Shown piece after piece: positions 27,251 to 55,701 of a DNA stretch of 64,000 nt. The DNA is taken from positions 32,001 through 96,000 of the forward strand of contig CAYZJA010000002.1 of NCBI GenBank assembly GCA_964479005.1, written 5' to 3'. This stretch comes from an uncultured Candidatus Saccharibacteria bacterium (GTDB lineage Bacteria > Patescibacteriota > Minisyncoccia > UBA6257). Each line of letters begins with the position of its first letter. Within the stretch, counting starts at the first letter, position 1. The translations under genes and the position numbers were made by a program. Under the pieces are notes generated by a model. It searched no databases and was not told the DNA's origin. It saw only the letters and a list, made by a program, of their open reading frames with translations.

Positions 27251-27310
27251 GTCAAATTTTAATTGGCATTAAAATATAGCGTCAAATTTTAATTGGCATT
27301 AAAATATAGG
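27251..27310. repeat. Perfect 30-bp tandem duplication covering the last 8 codons plus stop of dnaN
   Basis: gtcaaattttaattggcattaaaatatag(c/g) occurs twice in tandem at 27251-27280 and 27281-27310. Copy 2 contains the real dnaN stop, and copy 1 lies just downstream. Confidence 0.9.
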
Positions 27311-28418
27311 AAAAGCTATCATCAGATTTCCCATGAATCAAGCCGGGATTAATTTCTTTATTTAATTTAATAATAATTTCATCTTCTTTAATTGAATGCA
27401 ATCCATCTAATAAGAAATGATAATTAAAACTAATCTTTAATGGATTTCCACTTATATCTTCGGGGGTAAGAACTGTATGGCTTTTCCCCAAAGAAGGGTC
27501 TTGAGCCTCAATAACAATTTCCTTTTTCGATGAATTAAAATCAAACATAACGTCATTTATCCTCCCGCTAAATAAGCCAATAATTTTAACGGCCTCAATT
27601 AATTTCTTTCTATTTAAAATTGTCTGATTTTCAAAATTAGACGGAATTATTGAAGAATATTTTGGGTATTCAGCATTAATAAGCCTGGATATTAAGCGAA
27701 CATTATTTAATGAAAACTGAATTTGATTAGGTTCTGGAAAAATCTTTACTACACTACTAACTTCCTCCATCTCTTCTTGAATAATTCTTAGAACTTCTTG
27801 CGCTGTTCTTAATGGAATTATTATTTCTAAATTATCTTTTATATTAGTTTTAATTTTTTGGGATAAAATATTCTTTTCTGCCAAACGGAAACTATCAGTG
27901 CCAACTAATTTTAAAACGCTTTTTGAAGTATCGTTTTCTAATTTGAATAAAATACCATTCAATTCTGGTTTTGGAGAAGTATAACCAACACTCGGAATTA
28001 CTTGTTCTAATGCTTCTTCAAGGTCCTTTTTTTCTATTTCTATATATCTTTCTGTTTTTGTTTCTGGAATAATTGGAAATTCATCGGGATTTATTCCTTG
28101 AAAGGTCGTATTATAATTCCCACTTTTTACTGATAGAATATTTTTACTTTCTTCAATTGTAATTTTTTCTTCTGATAAATTATTCAAAAACATAGAAAAA
28201 GTTTTTGCTGGAATGATAAATTTTCCTTCTTTTTCCACTTTTCCTGTGATGATTAATTCAATTCCAATTTCCAAATCAGTGGCCAAAAGATGGAGCTTAT
28301 TTTTATTTGTTTTTAAAAGGATATTACTCAAAATAGGGAGTGTAAGATTTTTCCCTGTAATTTTTTCTGCTAAATTAATAGATTTTTTAAAATTATCGAC
28401 TAAAGTGATAAATTTCAT
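27282..28418 (-). CDS. dnaN: DNA polymerase III beta sliding clamp
   Basis: 378 aa with the three-domain beta clamp. It lies downstream of dnaA. Confidence 0.9.
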   Translation of the reverse strand: MKFITLVDNFKKSINLAEKITGKNLTLPILSNILLKTNKNKLHLLATDLEIGIELIITGKVEKEGKFIIPAKTFSMFLNNLSEEKITIEESKNILSVKSGNYNTTFQGINPDEFPIIPETKTERYIEIEKKDLEEALEQVIPSVGYTSPKPELNGILFKLENDTSKSVLKLVGTDSFRLAEKNILSQKIKTNIKDNLEIIIPLRTAQEVLRIIQEEMEEVSSVVKIFPEPNQIQFSLNNVRLISRLINAEYPKYSSIIPSNFENQTILNRKKLIEAVKIIGLFSGRINDVMFDFNSSKKEIVIEAQDPSLGKSHTVLTPEDISGNPLKISFNYHFLLDGLHSIKEDEIIIKLNKEINPGLIHGKSDDSFSYILMPIKI

Positions 28419-28672: not shown

Positions 28673-30055
28673 TCATTTATTATACAACATTTCTTTCAAA
28701 ATTGTTATTTCCTGACAAAAAACAGGGTTTTTTTCAATTTCAGAAGATATCTTTTTATATGCATGAATAACGGTGGTATGGTCACGATTACCTAATTTTT
28801 CAGCAATACTGGTATAGGAATAATGCAACTCTTCGCGCAAAAGATACATTACTATTTGCCTTGGTTTTACTAATTCTTTCTTCCTAGAACGACCCAAAAC
28901 ATCGTCTTCTTTAAGGTCATAGAAAGAAACTATTTTTTTAATCACTTCTTTTGGTGAAATATATTTATTTGATTTATTTAAAATGAGTGACAATATTCTT
29001 TTGGTTTCTTCTAAAGAGATTGGACTATTTTTAAGGCGCGCATGCGCGATGACTCTGTTTAATGCTCCCTCTAATTCCCTGATATTCTTTGGGATTGCCT
29101 CAGCTATATACTTAAGAACATCATTGTTTATAAGATGGGATACATCCTGACTTTTGTTTTCTAAAATAGCTAATCTTGTTTCAAAATCAGGATAACCAAT
29201 ATCAGCTATCATACCCCCTTCAAATCTAGACCTTAACCGTTCCTCAATAGACGGAATAGATTTTGGCGGGCGATCAGAGGTAAAAACAATTTGTTTATCT
29301 TTTTCATAGAGCGTATTAAACGTATGGAAAAGTTCTTCTTGTGTTTTATCTTTTCCGGCGACAAACTGGACATCGTCAATTAAAAGAAGATCAAGATTTC
29401 GGAAACTTTTTTTAAACTCTGTCATTTTTTGATTACGGATAGCATTAACTAAATCATCTGTAAATTTTTCCGAGGTAGCGTATAAAATTTTCAATTTCTT
29501 TTTTTTTCTCTTTAGTTCATTACCAATAGCTTGTAGAAGATGTGTTTTTCCTAATCCAACGCCGCCATAGATAAAAAGAGGATTATATTTTTTTCCTAGA
29601 TTTTCTATTACTGCCAAAGATGCTGCATTAGCTAATTCATTATTGGTTCCGACAACAAAGTTTTCAAAAAGGTATTTTGGATTAAGATTAGTTTCAGGGT
29701 CAATATTAAATTCTAATTGTTCATCTAAAACTGACGATTTTGAAATAGTTGAAGAACGTTTTGTTTTTTTAGTCTCTATTTTTTTTAAAGAATCTTTATT
29801 AGTAGTAACCAGATATTCAATCTTTTTAATTTTAGGATTTAAGCTAAAAAGAGCGTGTAGAATTTGTTTATGGTATTTATTTTCAAGCCATTCTTTTGTA
29901 AAACTAGATGGGACACCTATAAAGACCGTTCCTTCTTTAATATCTAAAATAAAAGCATCTTTTAACCATGTTAGGTAATTAGCTTTAGAAATATTCAATT
30001 TAATCTCTCCCAAAGCTGCTTCCCAAAGTTCTTTGATATCCATAATTGAAATCAC
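28673..30055 (-). CDS. dnaA: Chromosomal replication initiator DnaA
   Basis: 460 aa with the AAA+ motif (GGVGLGKTHLLQAIGNE), sensor motifs and a C-terminal HTH DNA-binding domain. Confidence 0.95.
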   Translation of the reverse strand: MISIMDIKELWEAALGEIKLNISKANYLTWLKDAFILDIKEGTVFIGVPSSFTKEWLENKYHKQILHALFSLNPKIKKIEYLVTTNKDSLKKIETKKTKRSSTISKSSVLDEQLEFNIDPETNLNPKYLFENFVVGTNNELANAASLAVIENLGKKYNPLFIYGGVGLGKTHLLQAIGNELKRKKKKLKILYATSEKFTDDLVNAIRNQKMTEFKKSFRNLDLLLIDDVQFVAGKDKTQEELFHTFNTLYEKDKQIVFTSDRPPKSIPSIEERLRSRFEGGMIADIGYPDFETRLAILENKSQDVSHLINNDVLKYIAEAIPKNIRELEGALNRVIAHARLKNSPISLEETKRILSLILNKSNKYISPKEVIKKIVSFYDLKEDDVLGRSRKKELVKPRQIVMYLLREELHYSYTSIAEKLGNRDHTTVIHAYKKISSEIEKNPVFCQEITILKEMLYNK

Positions 30056-30399: not shown

Positions 30400-30735
30400 A
30401 TGCTTAAAAAGAAAAACAGAATTACATCTTCTGTTGCTTTTAAAGAGATTTTTACTAAAGGTAATGTAAAAGAAAACGAGTGTTTTAAAATTATCTTCAA
30501 AAAGAGTGATTTAGACTATCCGAGGTATGGAATTATTGTTAAGGCTCAAAATAGTAAGTCAGCTGTACAAAGGAATGCTTTAAAAAGAAGAATTAGAGAT
30601 ATACTTAGAAATTCTTTGTTGGTTTTTCCAAAAGGATTTGATGTTGTGATTGTTACGAAGAGAAATTGTTTAAATATGAATTTCTCAAAGCTGAAAGAAT
30701 CTCTTGGTGAATTATTATTAAAACTATTTAAATAA
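30400..30735 (+). CDS. rnpA: Ribonuclease P protein component
   Basis: 111 aa basic protein in the canonical rpmH-rnpA-yidC-jag arrangement. Confidence 0.8.
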   Translation: MLKKKNRITSSVAFKEIFTKGNVKENECFKIIFKKSDLDYPRYGIIVKAQNSKSAVQRNALKRRIRDILRNSLLVFPKGFDVVIVTKRNCLNMNFSKLKESLGELLLKLFK

Positions 30736-30741
30736 ATTATT

Positions 30742-31434
30742 ATGAATGTTTTTGAATTATTGATTTTTCAACCGCTATATAATCTTTTAGCCTTACTCTC
30801 CAATCTAACAATGGGTGATTTAGGGTGGGCTGTTTTAATTTTGGCGGCAATAATTCGTTTTATTATTTGGCCTTGGTATAAAAAAGCCATGGGGGATCAA
30901 AGAAAAATGGCAAAATTACAGCCGAAAATTAAAGAAATTCAAAAGAAGTTTAAGAAGGAACCAATAAAGGCCAATCAGGAAGTAATGAAAATTTTTAAGG
31001 AAGAAAAAATCAATCCTGGCAATTCTTTCTTTTTTATCATTTTCCAATTGGCTATTTTTATTTCCCTTTATATATTTTTTAGGCAAGCCATAGTCAATGA
31101 TTGGGCTCCTTATCTTTATAGCTTTGTTAAATTGCCAGAACAAATAAATTATTTATTCCTTGGCATTATTGATCTTAAAGCTCCAAGCCTTGCTCTCGCG
31201 ATTATTTCAGCTTGCTTGAACTCCTTTTTGACTTTTATCCAACCAAGTTCAGGCCAGAACAAAGCAATGTTACTTGGCTTCCCTTTTATAATTTTATTTT
31301 TCTACCAGAGATTTCCCGCGATTGTTATTTTGTATTGGATAGGATTTACTTTAGTAAATCTTTTGCAGGAATATATGACTAAGAAAGAAACCATTCTCCC
31401 AAATCAAGCATCGGAAGTAAAGGCTATCAGTTAA
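30742..31434 (+). CDS. yidC: Membrane protein insertase YidC (short form)
   Basis: 230 aa polytopic membrane protein. The assignment rests on synteny with rnpA/jag plus YidC/Oxa1-like TM topology. Confidence 0.75.
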   Translation: MNVFELLIFQPLYNLLALLSNLTMGDLGWAVLILAAIIRFIIWPWYKKAMGDQRKMAKLQPKIKEIQKKFKKEPIKANQEVMKIFKEEKINPGNSFFFIIFQLAIFISLYIFFRQAIVNDWAPYLYSFVKLPEQINYLFLGIIDLKAPSLALAIISACLNSFLTFIQPSSGQNKAMLLGFPFIILFFYQRFPAIVILYWIGFTLVNLLQEYMTKKETILPNQASEVKAIS

Positions 31435-31508
31435 TTTTGAGCAAAGCCACGTTTAACGTGGCAAAGTGAGAAACAAGGTTCTGTGAACAAAGTAAACAGG
31501 TTCTTATT

Positions 31509-31982
31509 ATGGAAACATTAAAGGTAAAATCTTTTTTAGAAGAATTGCTTACAATTGTTGGTTTTGTAAATTTTGAGATTAGTACACAAGAAAGTCCCCA
31601 GGACAAACTTGTTCAGTTTTCAATTAAAACTGATTCAGAAATTAATTATAGTGGTCTTTTGATAGGACGTGATGGAGAAAACCTGCAAGCATTAGAATAT
31701 TTATTAAATATCTTTTCAAAAAAATACTCCAATGATTATCCTTGGAGAATTATTTTAGATATTAATAATTATCGGGCAATACAGGAAGAAAAATTAAGAG
31801 AATTTGCTAAAAAAGCGGCTCGTCACGTATCTTTATCAAAAAAAGAAATAGAATTACCGCCCATGAGGGCGCGAGATAGAAGAATTATCCATTTAGAGAT
31901 TGCTTTAAGAAGTGATGTATTCACAGAAAGTGTTGGGGAAAGGAAAGAGAGGCATATTATAATAAAACCGCAAGAAAAATAG
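31509..31982 (+). CDS. jag: Jag/KhpB-like RNA-binding protein (KH + R3H domains)
   Basis: 157 aa with a KH-like GRDGENLQALEYLLN segment and an R3H motif (RARDRRIIHLEIA). Confidence 0.8.
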   Translation: METLKVKSFLEELLTIVGFVNFEISTQESPQDKLVQFSIKTDSEINYSGLLIGRDGENLQALEYLLNIFSKKYSNDYPWRIILDINNYRAIQEEKLREFAKKAARHVSLSKKEIELPPMRARDRRIIHLEIALRSDVFTESVGERKERHIIIKPQEK

Positions 31983-32000: not shown

Positions 32001-32714
32001 TTAAGTAGCACCATACCAGCATCCTTCAGTAATACAATAATCACTGCCTGGATATGAACCATATCCAGTTGCTTCCATTAAAGATACATGGAGATGATTT
32101 CCCTCATCTAATACTGCCAATCCAGCTTTATTAAATTCTGCTATTATTTTTTTATTATCTTCAGAACTATTTGAAACTGAATCTATATCTACACAAGTGC
32201 CATCAAGATGACAATCATCGGCTCTCCTTGGCGTATAACTTGTACTATTGCATTCAGCGTCAATACAGGCATCATTTACCCACCACTTCGGATTTATATC
32301 TTTTAATAGAAGTAATTTATTTGCTAACGTGGAATCTAAATAAGCTTCTGATTGACCAAATGTATTATCATTTATTGGAATCCCCATATCTCTTATATTA
32401 ACTAAATTTTTTGATATAGCCTGATCTTCTGTAGTAACTTCTAGGGTAACTTCTGATGAGGGCAGGGTTATTGTATCAGAAGAACCTTTTAGAATATCAG
32501 GATTGATAGTATAAAGAATAATATAAAAAGCAAACAATAAAAGAAGTCCAATAATGGCGCCTGTGATTCTTTCTTGGGCGTCTTTTTGTTGGGCAGTATT
32601 ACCTCCAGAAGTAAGGTATTGAAAACCAGCATAAACAATCATGGCAAAAGCTAAAATTCCAGCGAGGCGAAAAGCCCACCAAATAAAAGTCTCGATTAAG
32701 CTTATTGGAGTCAT
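32001..32714 (-). CDS. T4SS pilin-like (VirB2-analog, two TM helices) protein fused to a C-terminal Cys-rich domain with HxD / HxH metallopeptidase-like motifs
   Basis: 237 aa. The N-terminus (AGILAFAMIVYAGFQYLTSGGNTAQQKDAQERITGAIIGLLLLFAFYII) fits the Gram-positive/CPR T4SS pilin pattern. The C-terminal ~140 aa contain CHLDGTC and NHLHVS. A LAS-type fold is a guess. Confidence 0.5.
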   Translation of the reverse strand: MTPISLIETFIWWAFRLAGILAFAMIVYAGFQYLTSGGNTAQQKDAQERITGAIIGLLLLFAFYIILYTINPDILKGSSDTITLPSSEVTLEVTTEDQAISKNLVNIRDMGIPINDNTFGQSEAYLDSTLANKLLLLKDINPKWWVNDACIDAECNSTSYTPRRADDCHLDGTCVDIDSVSNSSEDNKKIIAEFNKAGLAVLDEGNHLHVSLMEATGYGSYPGSDYCITEGCWYGAT

Positions 32715-32723
32715 AAGTTTTTA

Positions 32724-33419
32724 TTAAAATTGAGTAACATCGCCAGGATTAACTAGTCCAGGAATTCCTATTTCCCATTGGTAAGATTCAAAAATAGGAT
32801 ATTCAATTGACTGTATGTTTGGTGGAGCTGGTGGTTCTGGCAATGTTTGCAGAAATGTCTGCAGAATTTCATTTAAAATTATTGGGCATATTTGGGTAAT
32901 AAGAATAGCCATTGAGGTGCCAACTGTTGTGCCAAAAACCATTATATTTGCAGTTGCATCTGAAAGTGATTTACAGATATGCTCAATATCTACATGTTTA
33001 AGTAATAAATCTAAAATCCAACTTTTGACAAGTCCTGAAATATCATTATTTCCGTTTATTGCGCTTATAACCAATAATTTTAAGTCTTCTGGAATTACTT
33101 CATTATTCTGTATGATATTTATGAGTTCGTCTTTAACAGTATCTGTAATGTTCCCGTCATTTTGTATTGAGTTTATGAGATATGGTTTTAAATCTTCTGG
33201 AATCTCTTGACTGTTCTGTATTATGTTTATAAGTTCATTTTGAGTAAGTTCTGCTAATTCTGCGCCATCATTAAGGTTTGTTATTGTATCTAAGACCCCT
33301 TGTGGATCCAAAAAAGCCTGAGTTTGTATTGGGACTAAAAATAAACCACCTAATCCCAAATTTAATATCAAAACAATTAATACTATAGCCTTTGTTTTTT
33401 TGAAGATATTTTTAAGCAT
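32724..33419 (-). CDS. Secreted protein with three internal ~25-aa repeats (ELINIIQN..IPEDLK)
   Basis: 231 aa with a signal peptide. Repeats are visible in the translation and the C-terminus is hydrophobic. Confidence 0.4.
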   Translation of the reverse strand: MLKNIFKKTKAIVLIVLILNLGLGGLFLVPIQTQAFLDPQGVLDTITNLNDGAELAELTQNELINIIQNSQEIPEDLKPYLINSIQNDGNITDTVKDELINIIQNNEVIPEDLKLLVISAINGNNDISGLVKSWILDLLLKHVDIEHICKSLSDATANIMVFGTTVGTSMAILITQICPIILNEILQTFLQTLPEPPAPPNIQSIEYPIFESYQWEIGIPGLVNPGDVTQF

Positions 33420-33441
33420 ATTATTTTTTATTTAAAAATGA

Positions 33442-33810
33442 TTAGACTTTTTTTGGCGATGTTGCAGACGTAAGTTTAGTTACAGACGCAAGCTTAGCTG
33501 TTTTTTTTATTGCTTTTTTAACAGGTGCTGGTGATTTTTGGAGTGCATAGACAAGTATAACAGTTAAAGTGGCAATGGGCAAAATACTGGCAAATGGTAT
33601 AAGATCTAATGCTTGACCAATAAAAATCCATGTACCTCTTATTCCGCTGATAAGTGTAATAACAAAGATATAAATGACGAGAGGCAGGACAATAACCCAA
33701 ACAAAGAGGTTAATTCCAGGAATAAATCCCAAAAAGATTTCTATAACATCTTTAATAATGGATGTTATAAGCAAGAATAAAAATATTGTTAAGCTCATTT
33801 TATTTTTCAT
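33442..33810 (-). CDS. Small polytopic membrane protein (T4SS-cluster associated)
   Basis: 122 aa with 3-4 TM helices and a K-rich C-terminus. Confidence 0.4.
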   Translation of the reverse strand: MKNKMSLTIFLFLLITSIIKDVIEIFLGFIPGINLFVWVIVLPLVIYIFVITLISGIRGTWIFIGQALDLIPFASILPIATLTVILVYALQKSPAPVKKAIKKTAKLASVTKLTSATSPKKV

Positions 33811-33820
33811 AGAATAATAT

Positions 33821-35611
33821 TTATTCTTTTTTGAACTCCTCTTTAGCTTTCCTAATATCTATAAGTTGAGCTGGGTTTGAGGTAATAATTTGGTCTTCAG
33901 CATAAGAAGCGATAATCTGAATGGCAGCATGTTTGTCTTCTGCAAAAAAGAGACCTGTGCCAACAGAAGCTTGCAAAAGGATGGTTTTTTCTTGTTCTGT
34001 AAGATTTAAGGCTTTGCCTATGATATCAATATTCGCAGGCGACTGTCTTAGTAAAAGGGCTAAAGCAGAGTTGGTAATTAATGGTTTTCCATAAGGTGAT
34101 TTTAAAGCGTCTTCTATGTCCTGTGTAATAAAGGTTACTCCCATATAATACTTTCGCGCTCTTTTAACTAAACCAAAAAGAAAAGACGCGCTTTCTTCGT
34201 GGCGTAACAACCACCATCCTTCATCAATTATTACAACCCTTTTTCTTAAATCCTTTTTTATCATTGTCCATATGTAATTTAATACTACATACATGGCAAT
34301 AGGCCTAAGTTCTTCTTCTAATTCTCTTACGCCAAAGATAACTAAACGATTGTTAATATTAATATTCGATGGTTGATTAAGGAAGCCAGCATAGCTTCCT
34401 TTGGTGAATTTATAAAGTTTTGCAGCTAAATCTTCGCCTCCCTCGGTATTTTTAAGAACATTCTCTAGATCTTCCATTAATGGCAGATTTTTTTTCTCAA
34501 CCATATTTTCAGGAAAAATATCCCGACTTGCGTATGTTTGTACAATGGCTCTATCTAGCATAAGTTCTTCCTGAGGAGAAAGACCTTTAAGCATTAACTT
34601 AATTAGGCCAATAAGATTTAAAATATGGTTGCGAAAAACTTCTTCGCCAGTTTCCTCTTTTTTTACTGTAGGAAGTTCAAATGGATTAATATTATCATCA
34701 GAAGCAACAGATATTTTAAAGTAGCTTCCGCCAATTGAATCAGCCAAGTATTCATACTCATTTTCCGGATCAATAATCAATACATTAGTTCCTAGTAATA
34801 ATGAACGAAGGATTTCTAATTTTATAGCATAACTTTTTCCTGCGCCAGCTTGGGCAAAAACTATCATATTTGCGTTTGGTAGAACAAAGCGGTCAAAAAT
34901 AATCAAGCTATTATTATGCAGATTAACGCCATAAAGGATTCCTTTGTTTTCTGAAAGGTCTAAAGAAGAAAAAGGGAAAAGGGTTGAAGCCGGCTGTGAA
35001 TTTAAGGGAGTAGTTAATAATAATCTATCTATTCCCAATGGTAAGGAAGATTCCATTCCTTCGAATTCTCTAAAGACAGTTGGTTTTGCGTAAATTAACT
35101 GCTGCTCTAATACATTTTTGATTTTACTTTCTATTTTTATAAGTTCCTCCTTGTCATTGGCAAAAAAAGTGATATAAACACCTACTTCAAAAAGTTTTTC
35201 ACTACCTTGTTGGATAGTATCTCTTAGTTTTTCAATATTATTTAAAGCAGCTTCTAATAAGGGGTTACGAACTAATCCTCTATCTGCTTCAATGCTTAAT
35301 TGAGCTTGAATTTCTGCAGATTTTTTTCTTAAATTTCTTAAAACCTTATTAATATTAAGAGGGTGGAAAAAGATTGAAATATTAAAAGATTCATCCAAAT
35401 TAATAATTGAGGAAAACCAATTAGAGGCTAAATAATTTGGATAAGTTAGGATAAAAAGAGTTGAACAATATTTATTTCCTAATTTGAGAAAGTTAGTATT
35501 AATTTCTAATCCAGCAGGGGAAATTAAGTCCTGAAGAGTAGAAACAGCCTGGGATTGCGCTACCACTTGCGGGTTTTTAGGTTTTCTTTTAAATAAGTTT
35601 GGAAAACGCAT
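33821..35611 (-). CDS. VirB4/TrbE/CagE-family conjugal-transfer-type ATPase (C-terminal ATPase portion)
   Basis: 596 aa with Walker A (AQAGAGKS) and Walker B (VVIIDEGWW). It is followed in the cluster by PrgI-like and VirB6-like proteins. Confidence 0.75.
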   Translation of the reverse strand: MRFPNLFKRKPKNPQVVAQSQAVSTLQDLISPAGLEINTNFLKLGNKYCSTLFILTYPNYLASNWFSSIINLDESFNISIFFHPLNINKVLRNLRKKSAEIQAQLSIEADRGLVRNPLLEAALNNIEKLRDTIQQGSEKLFEVGVYITFFANDKEELIKIESKIKNVLEQQLIYAKPTVFREFEGMESSLPLGIDRLLLTTPLNSQPASTLFPFSSLDLSENKGILYGVNLHNNSLIIFDRFVLPNANMIVFAQAGAGKSYAIKLEILRSLLLGTNVLIIDPENEYEYLADSIGGSYFKISVASDDNINPFELPTVKKEETGEEVFRNHILNLIGLIKLMLKGLSPQEELMLDRAIVQTYASRDIFPENMVEKKNLPLMEDLENVLKNTEGGEDLAAKLYKFTKGSYAGFLNQPSNININNRLVIFGVRELEEELRPIAMYVVLNYIWTMIKKDLRKRVVIIDEGWWLLRHEESASFLFGLVKRARKYYMGVTFITQDIEDALKSPYGKPLITNSALALLLRQSPANIDIIGKALNLTEQEKTILLQASVGTGLFFAEDKHAAIQIIASYAEDQIITSNPAQLIDIRKAKEEFKKE

Positions 35612-35614
35612 ATT

Positions 35615-36295
35615 TTATTTATTAAATTCTTCTGGAATATTTATGGATTCTCTTTCAAAAGCTTCTGGGTTGTATGAATTGAAAAATAATTCAATCAGTT
35701 CTTTAGTAGTTAATGGTCGTGATTGTAATCCCATTCTAGTTAAATTCGTAATGATATTATTTTGTCTGATTATTAATTGTTGATAATGCTGACGAAAGCT
35801 TTCATCAGAAAGAGGGATTGTGGCGGAAAATGCCTGGTGCCTTAAATTAAGCAATGTTTTATAAGCTTCTAATATTTGGCTTAACGCGGTCTTTGGTTTA
35901 ATCATAATGGGGTCATAGGGCACTATTACATAGAATTTCTTTTTCATAATATTGTTTCCAGTAACAAGTCCTTTAATGAATGTATAATAATCCTCTCCTT
36001 GCAGTTTAAGCAGATTATTTGTTTCTTGACCAATCTTTTCCTGAAGAAAATTTAAATATGATTCAATATTAACGCGCCTAGAATGAGCTACAACTTGCAA
36101 TGGAAAATCTAAGTTATTTATAAGATTACGCCAGCTCATTAACACGGAAGATTGTTCTTCTTCTGATTTTAAATCAAAATTTATACCTGATACTTCTAAA
36201 ACCGAACGGAGCGAACCGTTTTTAAGAATAACTACCCCTTTTCTAATTTGTTGAAGGGAAATGAGTGACTGGCTACTGAAAGTTTCTTTAGGCAT
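35615..36295 (-). CDS. Hypothetical protein, likely the detached N-terminal domain of VirB4
   Basis: 226 aa ending 3 nt before the ATPase ORF start and in the same frame (TAA-AAT-ATG). The combined length of 822 aa is about that of a full VirB4. Confidence 0.45.
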   Translation of the reverse strand: MPKETFSSQSLISLQQIRKGVVILKNGSLRSVLEVSGINFDLKSEEEQSSVLMSWRNLINNLDFPLQVVAHSRRVNIESYLNFLQEKIGQETNNLLKLQGEDYYTFIKGLVTGNNIMKKKFYVIVPYDPIMIKPKTALSQILEAYKTLLNLRHQAFSATIPLSDESFRQHYQQLIIRQNNIITNLTRMGLQSRPLTTKELIELFFNSYNPEAFERESINIPEEFNK

Positions 36296-36712
36296 CTATT
36301 TATCTAATATATCGGTTAATTGTTTAAGTGTTTTTTTGTCCAATTGTTTTTTAATCTGTGTTTTTACTGTGGGTTTAGGCTTTTGAGAAACAGAATAAGA
36401 TACTTTCGAAAAAGTTTTTTCTTTTTTCCATAGATAGTATTTTGGAAGCCAAAAATGTCTGATTGCGGCAATGGCGAGTGTATAAATAGGAACACTATGG
36501 ATTTTCCCAAATGCGAGAGAAAAACCGACTGGAGCGAGAATCATTGCTAAAATTAACCAAAGCCATGGTTTTAAAACAGAAAAAAGTAAAAGGAGGAGTC
36601 CTCCAAAAGATAATAAAATCCATAATTGGGTAAAGGTAATCCAACCCATTAATTTTGTTTCCTCTTTTATAAATTGAGGCACTTGATAAGTCATATTTTT
36701 AAGCTTTACCAA
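36296..36712 (-). CDS. PrgI-family / VirB3-like small membrane protein
   Basis: 138 aa with two TM helices, positioned immediately upstream of the VirB4 homolog as in Gram-positive T4SS loci. Confidence 0.55.
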   Translation of the reverse strand: MVKLKNMTYQVPQFIKEETKLMGWITFTQLWILLSFGGLLLLLFSVLKPWLWLILAMILAPVGFSLAFGKIHSVPIYTLAIAAIRHFWLPKYYLWKKEKTFSKVSYSVSQKPKPTVKTQIKKQLDKKTLKQLTDILDK

Positions 36713-37589
36713 AAGGACTTTTTTTCTGATATTTTTTATAAGGAATAGGCTTTTGGATAGTAGGCGTTTCTTCTTTTTTTTCTTTTTCCTTTTTTAATTT
36801 AACGTCAAGGATATATGGTTTTTCTTTTTTAGTTTTCACAAAAACTTCTTCATCCTCAAATTCTTTTCCTTCACCGCTTAAAATTTTAGAGGGCGTTAAT
36901 TCTCCTATTCTTTTCTTTTCTAATATTTCCTTTTCTTCTCTTTTTGCTTCTTTGGGCGATGGGGGTTTTAAAGAGACTTTTTTCATTTCTTCAACAATCT
37001 TCGGTTGGACGGGTTTTCTCTGCATTGCCGCCAATAGCTTTGCTCTGATTTTTTCTTGTTGTTCTGAAGAAATTTTTGGAGCAACAACTTTTTTTAATTC
37101 CTCTATTTTACTAACTGGTTTTTCCACTTTTACTTCAGATGGTTCAGGCAAAGAATATTCAGGAATAATTGGTTCAGAAGGCATTTGTTCTGTAATGGTT
37201 TGTTCAATTTTTTCTTTCGTAATAGGCTTTATCTTTGAGGGCTTTTGCGGAATTCTTTGCTCTAAAGGTTGAGGTTTGTATTGGTTCAATTCTTTCTCAA
37301 ATATTTTAAAGATTTTTCCTTCAATTACTTTGTTAACAATTTGAGCTGCTACTGGAGAAATATTAATTCTTCTTTCTAATTCATTTTTGAATTGATCTTT
37401 AGATAATTGAAAAGATAAAATTTCTGTTATGATGTCCATAACACTAGAAAATTTTTCAGATGAAACTTTGCCCAAATTTAAAGCATCATCTATAATTGCC
37501 CCCATCTTGTCAGAGGCCAAAAAGTCCTGAATACGAAATGGAAGTTTATTGAATGATTTTAAGAATTTGTTTTTGTTCGTTTCTTCCAT
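36699..37589 (-). CDS. K/E/P-rich low-complexity hypothetical protein (T4SS-cluster associated)
   Basis: 296 aa with a structured N-terminal 100 aa followed by a KEP-rich tail. Confidence 0.4.
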   Translation of the reverse strand: MEETNKNKFLKSFNKLPFRIQDFLASDKMGAIIDDALNLGKVSSEKFSSVMDIITEILSFQLSKDQFKNELERRINISPVAAQIVNKVIEGKIFKIFEKELNQYKPQPLEQRIPQKPSKIKPITKEKIEQTITEQMPSEPIIPEYSLPEPSEVKVEKPVSKIEELKKVVAPKISSEQQEKIRAKLLAAMQRKPVQPKIVEEMKKVSLKPPSPKEAKREEKEILEKKRIGELTPSKILSGEGKEFEDEEVFVKTKKEKPYILDVKLKKEKEKKEETPTIQKPIPYKKYQKKSPFGKA

Positions 37590-37603
37590 ATTCCTCAGTA
37601 AGA

Positions 37604-39820
37604 TTAAAAAGGCAAAAATTCTGCCAAGAAACGATTTTTGTCGTATTTTCTTCTTTTGAGCTCTTGTTTAACAGTTTCTTCATTTCCGTGGATTTTGTCT
37701 TGGACAGATTTTACAAGTTTTTGTGCCCATTTTGTTTGTTTTTCAGTATCATTTGTTGACCTAAGCATAGCAGCAAAATTTCCAGCTGGAAGATTTTTAT
37801 CTAAAAGAGTATAGAAAAATCGATTGGTATGCTGTGGTCCTTTTTCTTCTAATCTTTCAAGAATGTTTTCCCAATTACCTAATTTTATATCATCAGGCGA
37901 AGATTTTAGCAGTTGTTCTGCTATAAGATTAGTGATAACACGATTTTTAGCTTCATCACGAGAGACTCCATGGAATCTTCGCTTCATCTGTTCTATTGCT
38001 TTGTCCATATCTTCAGGTTTTGTAAAGTATTTAGCATGAAGTTCTGGATGAATTTTTTTAATTCCTGAAACATTTAAATTAGGTTGATTTTTAGCTATTT
38101 CGATGAACTTGCTATCTTTTTTATAATCCAGTGATTCTTTTCCTATTAATGTGTTAACACCCAAAGCCATTCTTCCCCCATCTGTCTTATGTGCTTCCAT
38201 ATCAACTCTAATTTGATCTGGGCTTCTTCCTTTATAATCTTCTTCAATTTGTTTTAGTTCAGCTTCGCGAACTTTCCTAGGCTGCCTACCCATCCAAACC
38301 CCTATGTCATGTGTAGGCGCAAATTTGCTGTCTTCTAATTTTTTCTGAGCTTTTCTCCATGGTTCTGAGCTTACGGCTCCTTTTAATGCTTTATGACCAA
38401 GGAAGGCGCCAGCTACTGCTCCAGCCTTAGTAGTTTGTTTCATAACTAATTGAGATGCTGCTCCTCCGCTTTGGAGGGAGAAAATTAATCCTCCTACCAA
38501 AAACATAGAGAATAAAATCATTTGCACTATTGTTGAAGTTACAGAGTCTGCGCCGATTGATATTTGACTCATTCCACTCATTGCTATTATAGCAATATAC
38601 AGTATAAAACTAAAAATAACAGGAAAAAAACACCATTTTATAAATTGTTGCCACCACATTTTCCAATATTTTTCTGTATCTGGGAAAATCCAACAAGCAA
38701 AAACGATAGGGGATAAACCTAGAAGCATAATTAAAATGAATGCTCTGAAAATTATTGTCAAGAAAATAGCAAGCAAAGCAATAACAGCAAAACCTCCAAC
38801 CAATATCATTATAAAGCTGATTATGAAAAAGTTACCAAAACGTAGGCTATAACTCTCTACTTCCGTTGCTGCTGTTGTAGTTGCTGTACCAGTATCTCCA
38901 AGACCTAGAATTTTTGGCGTTTCATATTTATCCTCGCCAAATAAAACAGGAGGATCAAATGTTTTTGTATCCGCTGATTGTTGTTCTTGTTCAATATAAC
39001 TAAAACTTTCCATTATACGAGGGGCAAGGCTTTCATTTTTTTCTTGAGCAATGTTTAGAAAATATACTGAGAGATAATTAGAAGTATCTACTATGATTCC
39101 TGATATAACTAAACTGAAGTTTACTAACAAAGCAACAAGTATTAATTTCCAAAGGATTTGTTTCCAAGCATATTTTTTATAACCAAGAATAGTTGCGATA
39201 GCAATACCTATTAACCCTAAAACTAAAAGTGCGTTAACTAAATTGCGCATCATTTCCCATATTTGTATAACACCATCATTTGTAGCAAATCCGCCATAAG
39301 TTTTCGGATTTAACGCTTTTAATATCCAGCCTATTTCTAAATCTATTAATCCAGCAAACATTTTACCCAAACCTTCAAGTATGGCTTTTGTAGTAACACA
39401 CCACATGTCTGCAATCACTACTTTTATTTCGCATCCAAGCGCATCTAACCCCCAACCATACCTCGCTGCGCATTCCTGCATTCCCTCTTCAAAGTTCTTC
39501 TTACAAAGACCTTCTGGCCTTTCTTCTTGAAGTCTGGTTTTTATTGTCTGTGCTCCATGTCTTATCTCTGTTGTCCCAGGTTCAGGATTTGGAATACAAC
39601 ATTGCTCACTACCAAATCCAGGACAACTCAAAGAAGATTCAATGTAATCTTCTAAATCACTACATTTTGTTGTCTTTTTAACAACACATGTACCTCCTGC
39701 TTCTTCGCAGTCAGACCCAGCTCTTACTTGTGAAATATCAGTTTTTAAAACAGGGCTGATTAGTAATGTAAGAATAACTATGCTAAAAACCCCAATTTTT
39801 AATATATTTTTTGTTTTCAT
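37604..39820 (-). CDS. VirB6/TrbL-like polytopic membrane protein with N-terminal Cys-rich extracellular domain and C-terminal soluble domain
   Basis: 738 aa. A signal peptide is followed by a Cys-rich region with about 8 Cys, at least 6 TM helices in the middle and a soluble C-terminal 250 aa. Confidence 0.5.
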   Translation of the reverse strand: MKTKNILKIGVFSIVILTLLISPVLKTDISQVRAGSDCEEAGGTCVVKKTTKCSDLEDYIESSLSCPGFGSEQCCIPNPEPGTTEIRHGAQTIKTRLQEERPEGLCKKNFEEGMQECAARYGWGLDALGCEIKVVIADMWCVTTKAILEGLGKMFAGLIDLEIGWILKALNPKTYGGFATNDGVIQIWEMMRNLVNALLVLGLIGIAIATILGYKKYAWKQILWKLILVALLVNFSLVISGIIVDTSNYLSVYFLNIAQEKNESLAPRIMESFSYIEQEQQSADTKTFDPPVLFGEDKYETPKILGLGDTGTATTTAATEVESYSLRFGNFFIISFIMILVGGFAVIALLAIFLTIIFRAFILIMLLGLSPIVFACWIFPDTEKYWKMWWQQFIKWCFFPVIFSFILYIAIIAMSGMSQISIGADSVTSTIVQMILFSMFLVGGLIFSLQSGGAASQLVMKQTTKAGAVAGAFLGHKALKGAVSSEPWRKAQKKLEDSKFAPTHDIGVWMGRQPRKVREAELKQIEEDYKGRSPDQIRVDMEAHKTDGGRMALGVNTLIGKESLDYKKDSKFIEIAKNQPNLNVSGIKKIHPELHAKYFTKPEDMDKAIEQMKRRFHGVSRDEAKNRVITNLIAEQLLKSSPDDIKLGNWENILERLEEKGPQHTNRFFYTLLDKNLPAGNFAAMLRSTNDTEKQTKWAQKLVKSVQDKIHGNEETVKQELKRRKYDKNRFLAEFLPF

Positions 39821-52700: not shown

Positions 52701-52830
52701 GAAAAGTCAACCCCGTTAGAGATTTAAGTTAGTTAATTTATTTTCAATGACCATAGCCGAGAGGCGGCTTCGCCTTATGGTTTTTATATTATTGAAAAGC
52801 TGGGTTGAATCTCTAACGGGGTCAACCCTC
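52701..52830. other. ~130-nt nested hairpin element (candidate structured RNA)
   Basis: The outer 15-bp perfect inverted repeat is accccgttagagatt / aatctctaacggggt. An 8-bp stem ttttcaat/attgaaaa sits inside, and an inner ccata..aggcg-gctt-cgcct..tatgg hairpin sits inside that. Confidence 0.6.
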
Positions 52831-52876: not shown

Positions 52877-53254
52877 ATGAGGATAGGAAGAATTGGTTCT
52901 TTTGGAGAAGATAAAGCAACAACTTATCTTCAAAATAGCCATTATCAAGTTATACAAAGAAATTTCCAAAGGAAGTGGGGTGAGATTGATATTATTGCAA
53001 AAGATAAAAAAACAAAAGAATTAGTTTTTGTAGAAGTTAAAACAAGACAATTAAATTATGCTTATAGTTTAAACCCAGAAGAGGCATTAACTTCAAAGAA
53101 GGTTCGTCGTTTAAAGCGGGCCTTTTTAAGTTATTTAATTCAATATAATTTAGAAGATAAACCCTGGCGCTTTGATTTTATTGCTATAGAAATAGATAAT
53201 TTTAATTCAGAACCAATAATTCGGCATTATAAAGATATATTTTTACAATTTTAA
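52877..53254 (+). CDS. yraN: YraN/UPF0102 family endonuclease
   Basis: 125 aa. YLQNSHYQVIQRNFQRKWGEIDIIAKD...VFVEVKTR matches the UPF0102 PD-(D/E)xK pattern. Confidence 0.75.
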   Translation: MRIGRIGSFGEDKATTYLQNSHYQVIQRNFQRKWGEIDIIAKDKKTKELVFVEVKTRQLNYAYSLNPEEALTSKKVRRLKRAFLSYLIQYNLEDKPWRFDFIAIEIDNFNSEPIIRHYKDIFLQF

Positions 53255-53264
53255 ATTAAATTGA

Positions 53265-53465
53265 CTTTGTGACACGGTAAACATTGTGTGAAACAAAGTG
53301 TGAAACAATATTAACAAAGCCATTTCCTAATTTTAGACTAAAAATCTGGCTTATTTATGGGCAAACCAAGTAATTTAGGCAGCTTTTATCTCTATTAAGC
53401 CAAAACCCTAATTAAAAATAGTTACTTTGTGACACGGTAAACATTGTGTGAAACAAAGCGTGAAA
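53265..53465. repeat. Two ~45-bp direct repeats (ttactttgtgacacggtaaacattgtgtgaaacaaag[t/c]gtgaaaca) separated by ~113 bp
   Basis: Copies lie at 53265-53308 and 53422-53465 with 44/45 identity. Each contains GTGTGAAACA sub-repeats. They sit between the yraN stop and the tRNA island. Confidence 0.9.
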
Positions 53466-53496
53466 CACCGTAAAACGGCGTGAAGGAAATTATTTG

Positions 53497-53681
53497 TGGA
53501 CTCAGCGAGAATCGAACTCGCGTCTTCGCAACTTGCCCCCACACCATTATATTAGTGGACCCGAGGGGAATCGAACCCCTATCTCGGCAATGCGAATGCC
53601 GTGTAATACCATTGTACTACGGGCCCGTATTTTATGGTGTGGGGGTAAAAATGCGGTATATTACCACTATACTATGAGCCC
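53497..53681 (-). tRNA. Split/interrupted tRNA-like gene (Gly-like body, G3:U70) whose anticodon arm carries a ~150-nt insertion containing a complete tRNA-Ala
   Basis: The 5' half at 53681-53651 is GGGCTCA-TA-GTAT-AGTGGTAA-TATAC-CGCAT. The 3' half at 53530-53497 is TTGCG-AAGAC-GCGAG-TTCGATT-CTCGC-TGAGTCC-A. The acceptor halves pair perfectly (GGGCTCA/TGAGTCC). The insertion is clamped by the 12-bp inverted repeat CCCCCACACCAT/ATGGTGTGGGGG. Confidence 0.5.
53556..53626 (-). tRNA. tRNA-Ala (anticodon CGC), nested inside the split tRNA-like gene
   Basis: Hand-folded. The acceptor GGGCCCG/CGGGTCC has the G3:U70 alanine identity pair. The anticodon stem-loop is CGGCA-TTCGCAT-TGCCG and the T-arm is AGGGG-TTCGATT-CCCCT. 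Confidence 0.8.
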
Positions 53682-54534: not shown

Positions 54535-55701
54535 ATGCCCAAAGTAAAATGTAGAGTTTGCAAAAAGATATTCTATATCAAATCCAATTGGCTTAAAAGA
54601 GGATGGGGAAAATATTGTTCGAGGAAATGTCAGTACAAATCCCAATTGAAAGGAAAATTTGTGGTTTGCGCCTATTGCGGTAGAAGGGTATATCGATCAC
54701 TTGCTGAATTGCGCAGAAAATCTAAGGCAGGAGTTTATTTTTGTAATTTATCCTGTCATTGCGCTTGGAAAAATAAACAAAGGAAAAGTAAGGGAAGATT
54801 TAAATTACAAAATTTATGGGGACCGTGGTGTAATAGTAGCACTAGGACCTGTGGCGTCCTCGGTACGGATGCAAATTCCGTCGGTCCCCCATTTTTCTTT
54901 CTAAAATTCTTAAAGCCCAAGAAGAAAAAAAATAATCTTTTATTTCTTAAGCGGCCACCAAAGAAAATTCTTTATCATTTTTATTGGAAAAAGAATTATA
55001 CCCAAACAGAGATAGCTAAAATTTTTAATGCCACCCACACTAGCGTGAAAAGATGGTTTAATTATTATAAAATCATGGTGAAGTACCGAACTCTATCTTG
55101 TGGCCATAATCCCAATATTTTAAGAAATTTAAAATTAGGTCGTACAGATAAAGCTATTAGAAAATCGGCAGAAGCAAGAAGAATTTATTCAAAAGAAAAA
55201 CTTATTGAAAAAATAAAAGAATTTGTACAAAAAGAAGAAAGAATTCCTACAAAGAACGAATTTATTAATAATTCCTCTTATCCAGATTATGTCACTTACA
55301 GGCATTATTTTGGCACTTGGAATAATGCCATCAAGACAGCGGGCTACAAGCCAAATGAACAATGGTTTGCCTCAGGACATTTATTTGCTAAAGATGGGCA
55401 CAAATGTAATTCAATTTCAGAAATAATCATTGACGATTGGTTTTTTGAAAATGATATTTCTCATACGAGAGAGTGTTTATACCCAGAAGGACGATATCGC
55501 TGTGATTTTATGGTTGGCAATACTTTTATTGAATTTTTTGGTTTATTTAATGCTTCCATTGTTAACCCAAGTTATATTGAAATCGTTAAAAGAAAAAAAG
55601 AAATATGTAAGAAATTTAATATTGTCCTCATTGAACTCTATGAGAAGGATCTTTATAAATTAGATCAATCCTTGGGAGCAAAGATTGGATTAAAAGTATA
55701 A
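54535..55701 (+). CDS. Composite ORF: N-terminal double Zn-ribbon, HTH, HNH-repeat (homing-endonuclease-associated) and DUF559/Vsr-like PD-(D/E)xK nuclease region
   Basis: 388 aa. The CxxC..CxxxC repeat occurs twice. The other elements are an HTH (TQTEIAKIFNATHTSVKRW), an HNH-repeat-like motif (YVTYRHYFGTWNNAIKTAGY) and a C-terminal S.SE....DDW...N..H..E...P.G.YR.DF.V......IEF.G. The ORF reads through an embedded tRNA-His-like gene at 54818-54891 and a poly-A tract, so the true CDS boundaries are uncertain and it may be a fragmented gene. Confidence 0.4.
   Translation: MPKVKCRVCKKIFYIKSNWLKRGWGKYCSRKCQYKSQLKGKFVVCAYCGRRVYRSLAELRRKSKAGVYFCNLSCHCAWKNKQRKSKGRFKLQNLWGPWCNSSTRTCGVLGTDANSVGPPFFFLKFLKPKKKKNNLLFLKRPPKKILYHFYWKKNYTQTEIAKIFNATHTSVKRWFNYYKIMVKYRTLSCGHNPNILRNLKLGRTDKAIRKSAEARRIYSKEKLIEKIKEFVQKEERIPTKNEFINNSSYPDYVTYRHYFGTWNNAIKTAGYKPNEQWFASGHLFAKDGHKCNSISEIIIDDWFFENDISHTRECLYPEGRYRCDFMVGNTFIEFFGLFNASIVNPSYIEIVKRKKEICKKFNIVLIELYEKDLYKLDQSLGAKIGLKV
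54818..54891 (+). tRNA. tRNA-His-like gene (anticodon GTG) with encoded G-1:C73
   Basis: Hand-folded. G-1 is followed by the acceptor GGGACCG/CGGTCCC and discriminator C. The D-arm is GTGT..GCAC, the anticodon stem-loop is AGGAC-CTGTGGC-GTCCT and the T-arm is ACGGA-TGCAAAT-TCCGT. It is oriented opposite to the neighbouring tRNAs and lies inside the predicted ORF. Confidence 0.6.

Follow-up and report, generated by a model that had tools for sequence, protein, structure and literature searches.

Two direct repeats near the probable replication origin of a Saccharibacteria chromosome as the likely arms of a parS-derived module

The window analysed here, a 64-kb stretch of bacterial chromosome with about 32% GC, carries two near-identical repeat blocks beside a tRNA cluster. 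Judging from sequence comparison with related loci, we think it rather likely that these repeats are the arms of a lineage-conserved, origin-proximal module that is derived from parS, binds ParB and is related to a centromere.

The blocks are 44 nt long each (53264-53307 and 53424-53467) and agree at 43 of 44 positions, the sole mismatch being a T/C difference at repeat position 36. They lie 160 nt apart from start to start, with a spacer of 116 nt (53308-53423) between them. The original prediction had seen a near-identical pair at 53265-53308 and 53422-53465, separated by 113 bp; the pair is real, whereas its positions were 1-2 nt off and the spacer was given 3 nt too short. Each copy is built as ACTTTGTGACACGGTAAACATT-GTGTGAAAC-AAA-G(T/C)GTGAAAC-A, with two perfect GTGTGAAAC/GCGTGAAAC units and a degenerate one (GTGACAC, GGTAAAC), so the three GTGTGA(A/C)AC-like sub-motifs that had been described per copy hold in substance. 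That they lie past the yraN stop (53254) and short of the minus-strand tRNA cluster, whose 3' end is at 53497, was likewise correct. The locus is made up as follows.

52877-53254, plus strand: yraN (UPF0102), the upstream neighbour, listed as context only.
53264-53307, plus strand: block A, a decayed parS at 53268-53283 (TGTGACACGGTAAACA, 4 of 16 positions mismatched) followed by two direct half-parS heptamers.
53288-53294 and 53300-53306, plus strand: the GTGAAAC heptamers of block A, which with GGTAAAC at 53276-53282 make three units in 12-bp phasing.
53308-53346, plus strand: linker, with the clade-invariant segment AATATTAACAAAGCCATTT at 53308-53330.
53347-53402, without strand: central palindromic hairpin of about 60 nt, with the basal stem TGGCTTA (53347-53353)/TAAGCCA (53396-53402) and a 3' A-run.
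53403-53423, plus strand: variable linker that for the most part cannot be aligned between relatives; its counterpart in close relatives has 39 additional bp and includes a perfect parS, AACTTTGTTTCACGTGAAACAAAGTT.
53424-53467, plus strand: block B, composed as block A, with its decayed parS at 53428-53443.
53448-53454 and 53460-53466, plus strand: the half-parS heptamers of block B.
53468-53489, plus strand: extension of block B with two more degenerate units, GTAAAAC and GTGAAGG, a window-specific insertion relative to L009-L011.

The 44-mer has these two copies only in the 64 kb, and no match to it arose in 100 dinucleotide shuffles of the window. Five independent Logan contigs (L001, L002 and L004-L006) end at one and the same base in block A, 39 nt past the yraN stop. 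These breaks are what k=31 graph branching at a two-copy repeat produces, and they therefore give no evidence for extra copies. A common dispersed intergenic repeat was rejected on both grounds, namely that the window holds two copies only and that the pair itself explains the contig breaks. The same k=31 artefact would hide the module locus in short-read assemblies.

The identity of the blocks is best read in the relatives. There, the left part of the block is in many cases a perfect palindrome with the halves AATGTTTCAC and GTGAAACATT, and its 16-bp core is TGTTTCACGTGAAACA. By its sequence, this core is canonical chromosomal parS, the class of site bound by ParB; the chromosomal consensus is TGTTNCACGTGAAACA in B. 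subtilis, C. glutamicum and others (PMC7022226). ChIP-seq experiments show the heptamers GTTCCAC and GTTTCAC, known as half-parS, to be bound by the ParB of P. aeruginosa and by several others (PMC7022226), and the window locus holds four perfect copies of the second as its reverse complement, GTGAAAC (starts at 53288, 53300, 53448 and 53460). These are four of the six GTGAAAC heptamers of the entire 64-kb window, and they fall inside this 200-bp locus. Taken together, the palindrome of the relatives and the two heptamers define the presumed ancestral block as canonical parS, TGTTTCACGTGAAACA, followed by two further direct copies of its right half-site, GTGAAACA, spaced 12 bp apart.

How well the parS part is kept differs widely between relatives. 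Of the 16-mers that adjoin the direct half-sites in 96 non-redundant blocks, 26 are a perfect parS and a further 14 have one or two mismatches (seven each), which at this homologous position is within the 1-2 mismatches to TGTTNCACGTGAAACA expected of a chromosomal parS. Nine blocks have three mismatches and 36 have four, including both blocks of the window, where the 16-mer reads TGTGACACGGTAAACA and lies outside that range. The four substitutions in the window's decayed parS are not symmetric. Perfect parS sites are present at 31 loci and are clustered: L023 and L034 have nine within about 770 bp, while L029, L056, L064 and L076 have six, and all 79 perfect sites in the 577 kb scanned lie within 700 bp of a block motif. 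Plasmid and chromid records of Clostridium, Listeria, Corynebacterium and Riemerella match the palindrome part only, and the composite matches none. In the ~82 kb round the window's origin (the window and ~18 kb beyond its ends), no parS within two mismatches was found. Close relatives with a 199-nt spacing carry the perfect AACTTTGTTTCACGTGAAACAAAGTT between the hairpin and block B; the window does not.

The composite is conserved across species. The 26-mer core is found exactly in three GTDB species representatives labelled Candidatus Saccharibacteria, and these are syntenic with one another, running from the yraN stop through a block, a spacer of ~113 nt and a second block to a minus-strand tRNA. 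Thus, when the repeat was followed into related genomes, as had been suggested along with the original prediction, the two-copy module was met at the same place across species. Proteins identical to those of the window were also found on contigs of environmental metagenomes. With a tolerant pattern demanding two heptamers, 78 metagenome loci were recovered, of which about 65 are distinct; two (L060 and L077) are chance pattern matches without module context, and 76 are in context. In most of the loci the two blocks are 139-200 nt apart, some loci have one block, and two, L043 (oriented 513-608) and L069 (18-65), have the 12-nt unit (WWW-GTGTGAAAC) expanded into tandem arrays of at least eight units, so the number of half-sites varies between genomes. 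The metagenome-assembled genome of one locus, L009 (DATKUW010000044.1), is labelled Bacillota, yet the locus is syntenic with the Saccharibacteria loci and ~80-90% identical to them; this contig is probably mis-binned.

In a 12-genome alignment the blocks are essentially invariant. Both are 91-100% identical in eight window-type relatives, in which the yraN coding sequence is 80-91% identical; block A alone is 93-100% identical in these eight and 64-86% in four others, against 80-92% for yraN. Variation within the blocks is concentrated in the former palindrome and the half-sites are constant, a constancy that across loci is partly an ascertainment effect, since the search pattern required half-sites. 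By this pattern of sequence identity, the blocks are still under purifying selection in the window lineage although their palindromes have decayed. It could be argued instead that the locus is a neutral relic, left by local tandem duplication of what was once a parS region and no longer functional in the window lineage. The decayed palindrome, the weak window hairpin and the lack of any ParB in the DNA scanned are what such a relic would show, but neutral sequence should differ between relatives, whereas the blocks keep 91-100% identity against 80-91% for the adjacent coding sequence and linkers that have diverged beyond alignment. We regard the relic as quite improbable.

The reading as a parS-derived module also fits the genomic setting. 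The window encodes trigger factor, NusA, ClpP, GyrB, FtsK, PheRS and a type IV secretion-like cluster, along with the following genes.

27282-28418: dnaN, beside dnaA.
28673-30055, minus strand: dnaA, which with dnaN and rnpA-yidC-jag marks the probable oriC region.
30400-31982: rnpA-yidC-jag, divergent from dnaN and dnaA.

GC skew is negative up to ~22 kb of the window and positive from ~54 kb. The presence of dnaA, dnaN and rnpA-yidC-jag, together with this change of sign, places the replication origin within the window and makes the repeat locus origin-proximal. Chromosomal parS sites usually are origin-proximal, and the module lies ~23 kb from dnaA. No DnaA-box cluster was found at the module locus in the window. 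At two related loci, L050 and L074, two perfect DnaA boxes (TGTGGATAA) stand 12 nt apart directly after block B, upstream of sufC. The secretion-like cluster (window 32001-39820), about 2 kb from the probable oriC region, comprises a T4SS pilin, a VirB4/TraG-like ATPase, PrgI and a TrbL/VirB6-like protein.

Which genes the module accompanies bears on a further reading, that of the original prediction, in which direct repeats next to tRNA genes would be integration att sites. The module lies 10-30 nt past the yraN stop in most relatives and accompanies yraN homologues down to ~50% amino-acid identity, in either orientation; at loci without yraN, it follows a minus-strand ORF of ~400 aa in the position that NusA has in the window. 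The genes downstream vary (tRNAs, sufCD, the alanine racemase gene alr, an IS481 transposase), and loci without a nearby tRNA still carry the module. The module therefore tracks the nusA/yraN neighbourhood and not tRNA genes. Attachment sites would bound an element with an integrase or cargo and usually overlap a tRNA 3' end; here, the interval is 116 nt long and gene-free, the repeat stops 30 nt short of the tRNA 3' end and overlaps no tRNA gene, and the neighbours (YraN, NusA, a 65-aa ORF and an HNH_repeat protein) include neither an integrase nor a replication initiator, for which the original prediction had proposed to look. As for an attP-like copy, the 26-mer core has no match in IMG/VR, and the module has none in phage and plasmid records. 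Also against an attL/attR pair or a mobile-element scar are the parS-like content of the repeats and the conservation of the module across species. What speaks for such an origin is that the direct repeats adjoin tRNA genes, that an insertion interrupts the adjacent tRNA-Ala gene too, and that a 160-bp unit is missing at one locus; we nevertheless consider it extremely unlikely. The locus in question, L017 (1040-1140), shares its flanks with L011 and runs from yraN through a single block to the tRNA, with hairpin and one block precisely missing relative to L011. The variable presence of the interval, proposed as a check along with the original prediction, is thus real. Recombination between direct repeats of 44 bp would be expected to remove just such a unit, and the loss is not a sign of a mobile element.

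The alternative offered by the original prediction, that the repeats are iterons or binding sites for a regulator of the tRNA operon, was sound as to kind, since the units do resemble repeated protein sites. It missed the target: as parS and half-parS sequences, the units go with yraN/nusA and the origin region and not with the tRNA operon. As replication iterons they would form an array beside a rep gene and an AT-rich unwinding element; here, no Rep-type gene is present and dnaA is 23 kb away.

With the blocks read as arms of a parS-derived module, a mode of action may be proposed. The blocks would serve as DNA sites for the chromosome-partition protein ParB, two blocks of ancestral type flanking the palindromic element of ~60 bp. 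ParB clamps would nucleate at intact palindromes, with the heptamer half-sites providing weaker, non-spreading ParB contacts, as reported for several ParBs; the module may in this way help to organise or segregate the origin region. In the lineage of the window, the palindromes have decayed, and what is left are the half-site arrays, still under purifying selection. Probably, the window retains an accessory ParB site, or one made of half-sites only, and any parS that nucleates binding would lie elsewhere in the genome.

ParA and ParB genes were found neither among the scanned ORFs of the window and ~18 kb beyond its ends nor, with approximate Spo0J/Soj sequences as probes, in the flanks of ~80 related loci. 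It is here that the ParB reading is weakest. Several ORFs that came into consideration turned out to be other genes. The 251- and 303-aa ORFs beside the module in L050 are SufC and SufD, a 291-aa ORF to the left of the window is a release factor, and a 1170-aa ORF considered as SMC has a Lamin-tail domain instead. The literature searched holds nothing relevant on parS or ParB in Saccharibacteria/CPR. To our knowledge, the chromosome biology of these bacteria is essentially undescribed.

We would note that direct half-site repeats with 12-bp phasing are, as far as we know, not a described ParB site architecture, and fixed 12-bp direct repeats are typical of tandem binders, not of a dimer bound to a palindrome. 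The GTGAAAC repeats might thus serve another sequence-specific DNA-binding protein, for example a Noc/KorB-type paralogue of ParB or a tandem-repeat transcription factor; they would then have been exapted from parS for a regulatory or nucleoid role outside ParABS. The constancy of the half-sites where the palindrome decays in many lineages, the tandem expansion of the unit in L043 and L069 and the absence of ParB from the DNA scanned would all suit such a protein. The repeats, however, abut a perfect parS in 26 of 96 blocks and up to nine perfect parS cluster together, for which one protein is the simplest explanation. Moreover, no candidate regulator gene is constantly adjacent, given that yraN is missing at many loci and the downstream genes vary. 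We hold a role for another protein to be rather unlikely.

The second element of the module is the central hairpin. It consists of a basal stem of invariant sequence, TGGCTTA(A)/(T)TAAGCCA, then an A-run, an internal loop and a middle stem, AAACCNGG/CCNGGTTT, the sequence of which changes between lineages; in the window copy the middle stem is eroded (-10 kcal/mol). A covariance model (R1) finds 53337-53410 with 78.8 bits as its sole match in the window. Elsewhere it finds the hairpin once per module, with the exceptions of L015 and L048, where it occurs twice, and it detects no copy at the parS-dense loci L023, L029, L034 and L056. Directly after block A, the segment AATATTAACAAAGCCATTT varies as little as the blocks do within the window-type clade (12-genome alignment), and its AAGCCA can pair with the TGGCTT of the hairpin base, which would allow two pairings that exclude each other; 24 of 45 distinct loci have an AGCC(A/T) upstream. 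The linker from hairpin to block B is unalignable in most of the eight window-type relatives.

The pairing itself appears to be maintained. Across 47 loci, 38 cells of the middle stem are changed on both sides, against 22.6 +/- 4.2 in shuffled controls (none of 500 reached the observed value) and at most 12 in slid controls, as counted on an alignment fitted to the structure, which favours pairing. On a MAFFT alignment, RNAalifold supports only five basal pairs. G.U and A.C pairs are balanced overall (40 vs 37), with a slight plus-strand excess in the basal helix (18 vs 7). The counts indicate that hairpin pairing is selected, at the level of either DNA or RNA, and the data do not tell the strand. 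As candidate roles, the hairpin may act in the origin domain as a DNA cruciform or protein site, give rise to a small RNA or be a minus-strand terminator.

An RNA could in principle account for the whole locus, that is, a small non-coding RNA or cis-RNA with the hairpin as its core and the repeats as motifs for transcript processing or protein binding, or else a minus-strand terminator of convergent genes. The covariation of the middle stem, the G.U excess of the basal helix, the alternative pairing with the upstream AAGCCA and a T-run after most copies on the minus strand are in keeping with this, as is the constant orientation of the hairpin relative to the block in the covariance-model matches. 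The latter also counts against a ParB site, since a symmetric site would not require a constant relative orientation. Other observations disagree with an RNA. No Rfam family is found even at permissive thresholds (in Rfam 15 only tRNAs pass, and the best other match at the locus is Fusobacteriales-1 with 21.8 bits against a threshold of 52.1, E=4.2); the overall balance of G.U and A.C reveals no strand preference; and the support from RNAalifold is confined to the base. By inspection, no conserved -10/-35 stands between block and hairpin. A lineage-invariant basal-stem sequence is atypical for a terminator, and an RNA would not explain why the blocks are parS in sequence. We judge the RNA and terminator alternatives to be unlikely.

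Several more specific assignments at the locus were considered and discarded. SRP RNA and 6S RNA lack support in the hairpin, which has no GNRA/AGCA motif and no Rfam match. A small ORF in the spacer (MGKPSNLGSFYLY) loses its start or meets an early stop in relatives (L015, L018). The sigma-70 promoter TTAACA-17-TAGACT at 53311-53339 has a -10 that is not kept in relatives. A plus-strand RNA hairpin within each block is not maintained, as the variants GACACGC and GTCACAC break pairs without compensation.

A bolder version of the centromere reading deserves mention, in which the locus is a composite centromere specific to the phylum Saccharibacteria: parS plus phased direct half-parS, in two arms round a conserved palindrome, with some lineages, including that of the window, having dispensed with the canonical palindrome. 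ParB or a paralogue would act through the half-sites, and the central palindrome would be a new cis element of the origin domain, either a DNA cruciform or a small RNA. We offer this as a possibility, though a doubtful one.

Compared with known chromosomal parS (the Spo0J sites of B. subtilis, TGTTNCACGTGAAACA), the module shares the identical 16-bp palindrome in relatives, as well as clustering, intergenic location and proximity to oriC, and the window blocks derive from that palindrome by four substitutions. It differs in that the window has no palindrome within two mismatches, that the site is part of a larger block with two extra direct half-sites, duplicated round a palindromic element, and that a cognate ParB was not seen in ~82 kb round the origin. 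The half-parS heptamers reported earlier (PMC7022226) have the same sequence, GTGAAAC being the reverse complement of GTTTCAC; unlike the module, they are hundreds of dispersed singles, whereas the present ones form a phased 12-bp array that is conserved, locus-specific and adjacent to a full or decayed parS.

Plasmid centromeres are a further point of reference. R1 parC, the pSM19035 heptads and the P1 parS boxes A and B are arrays of short direct or inverted repeats, which are bound by RHH or plasmid-specific ParB/ParR proteins and lie beside their own par genes. The module resembles them in its arrays of short units of mixed orientation and in having one such array on either side of a central region; in contrast, its units are halves of chromosomal parS and no par gene is adjacent. 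TIGR and CRISPR arrays, too, are short tandem repeats in CPR genomes, and the module repeat starts with GTTTC and ends with GAAAC. A CRISPR/TIGR array was nonetheless rejected, because the module has three fixed nucleotides between units in place of variable spacers, its 116-nt inter-repeat interval is conserved, and no Nop-domain tas gene or cas gene is nearby. As for the hairpin alone, integron attC is likewise an imperfect palindrome of ~60 nt with a variable apex, and the hairpin ends GCTTAAC ... GTTAAGC fit RYYYAAC ... GTTRRRY. It was discarded as well, as the hairpin is single-copy per genome, syntenic and conserved across species, with no cassette array and no integron integrase among the scanned ORFs.

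parS and half-parS are already known; the composite, phased, two-armed module with a conserved central palindrome is new with respect to the literature searched, in which its restriction to Saccharibacteria-type genomes and the half-site-only state of the window are likewise undescribed. The locus represents a natural case of half-sites that are phased, conserved and selected though the full palindrome has decayed, and is as such a substrate for testing half-site binding. In addition, the module is an easily recognised landmark of the origin domain for Saccharibacteria/CPR genomes and flags a conserved single-copy palindromic element. For annotation, it teaches that direct repeats beside tRNA genes are not att sites by default.

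Some features of the neighbourhood are recorded in their own right. Between nusA and yraN, an 18-nt inverted repeat (52710-52822; 94% complementary, 77 nt apart) encloses a terminator-like GC hairpin (52761-52776); only about one third of this intergenic region aligns in most relatives, and 80% in L010. ARAGORN predicts a tRNA-His(GTG) at 54819-54890, inside an ORF with an HNH_repeat domain (54535-55701), and makes the same prediction at the corresponding place in several relatives; at the gathering score, this tRNA is missing from the Rfam results. This is either a real tRNA with a wrong start assigned to the ORF, or a conserved false positive.

Next to the module, a tRNA-Ala-like gene on the minus strand (53497-53680) is split in its anticodon loop into a 5' half (~53641-53680) and a 3' half (53497-53532). 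In place of the loop CGCA stand ~108 nt with a complete tRNA-Ala(CGC) at 53555-53626, on either side of which lie the arms of a 20-nt inverted repeat (53533-53552/53629-53648). With introns allowed, ARAGORN calls the inner tRNA-Ala only at 53497-53680. L009 has an uninterrupted tRNA-Ala(CGC) at the homologous place, and the insertion is present in L010 and L012. It looks like a tiny insertion that breaks up a tRNA gene while supplying a substitute copy of its own.
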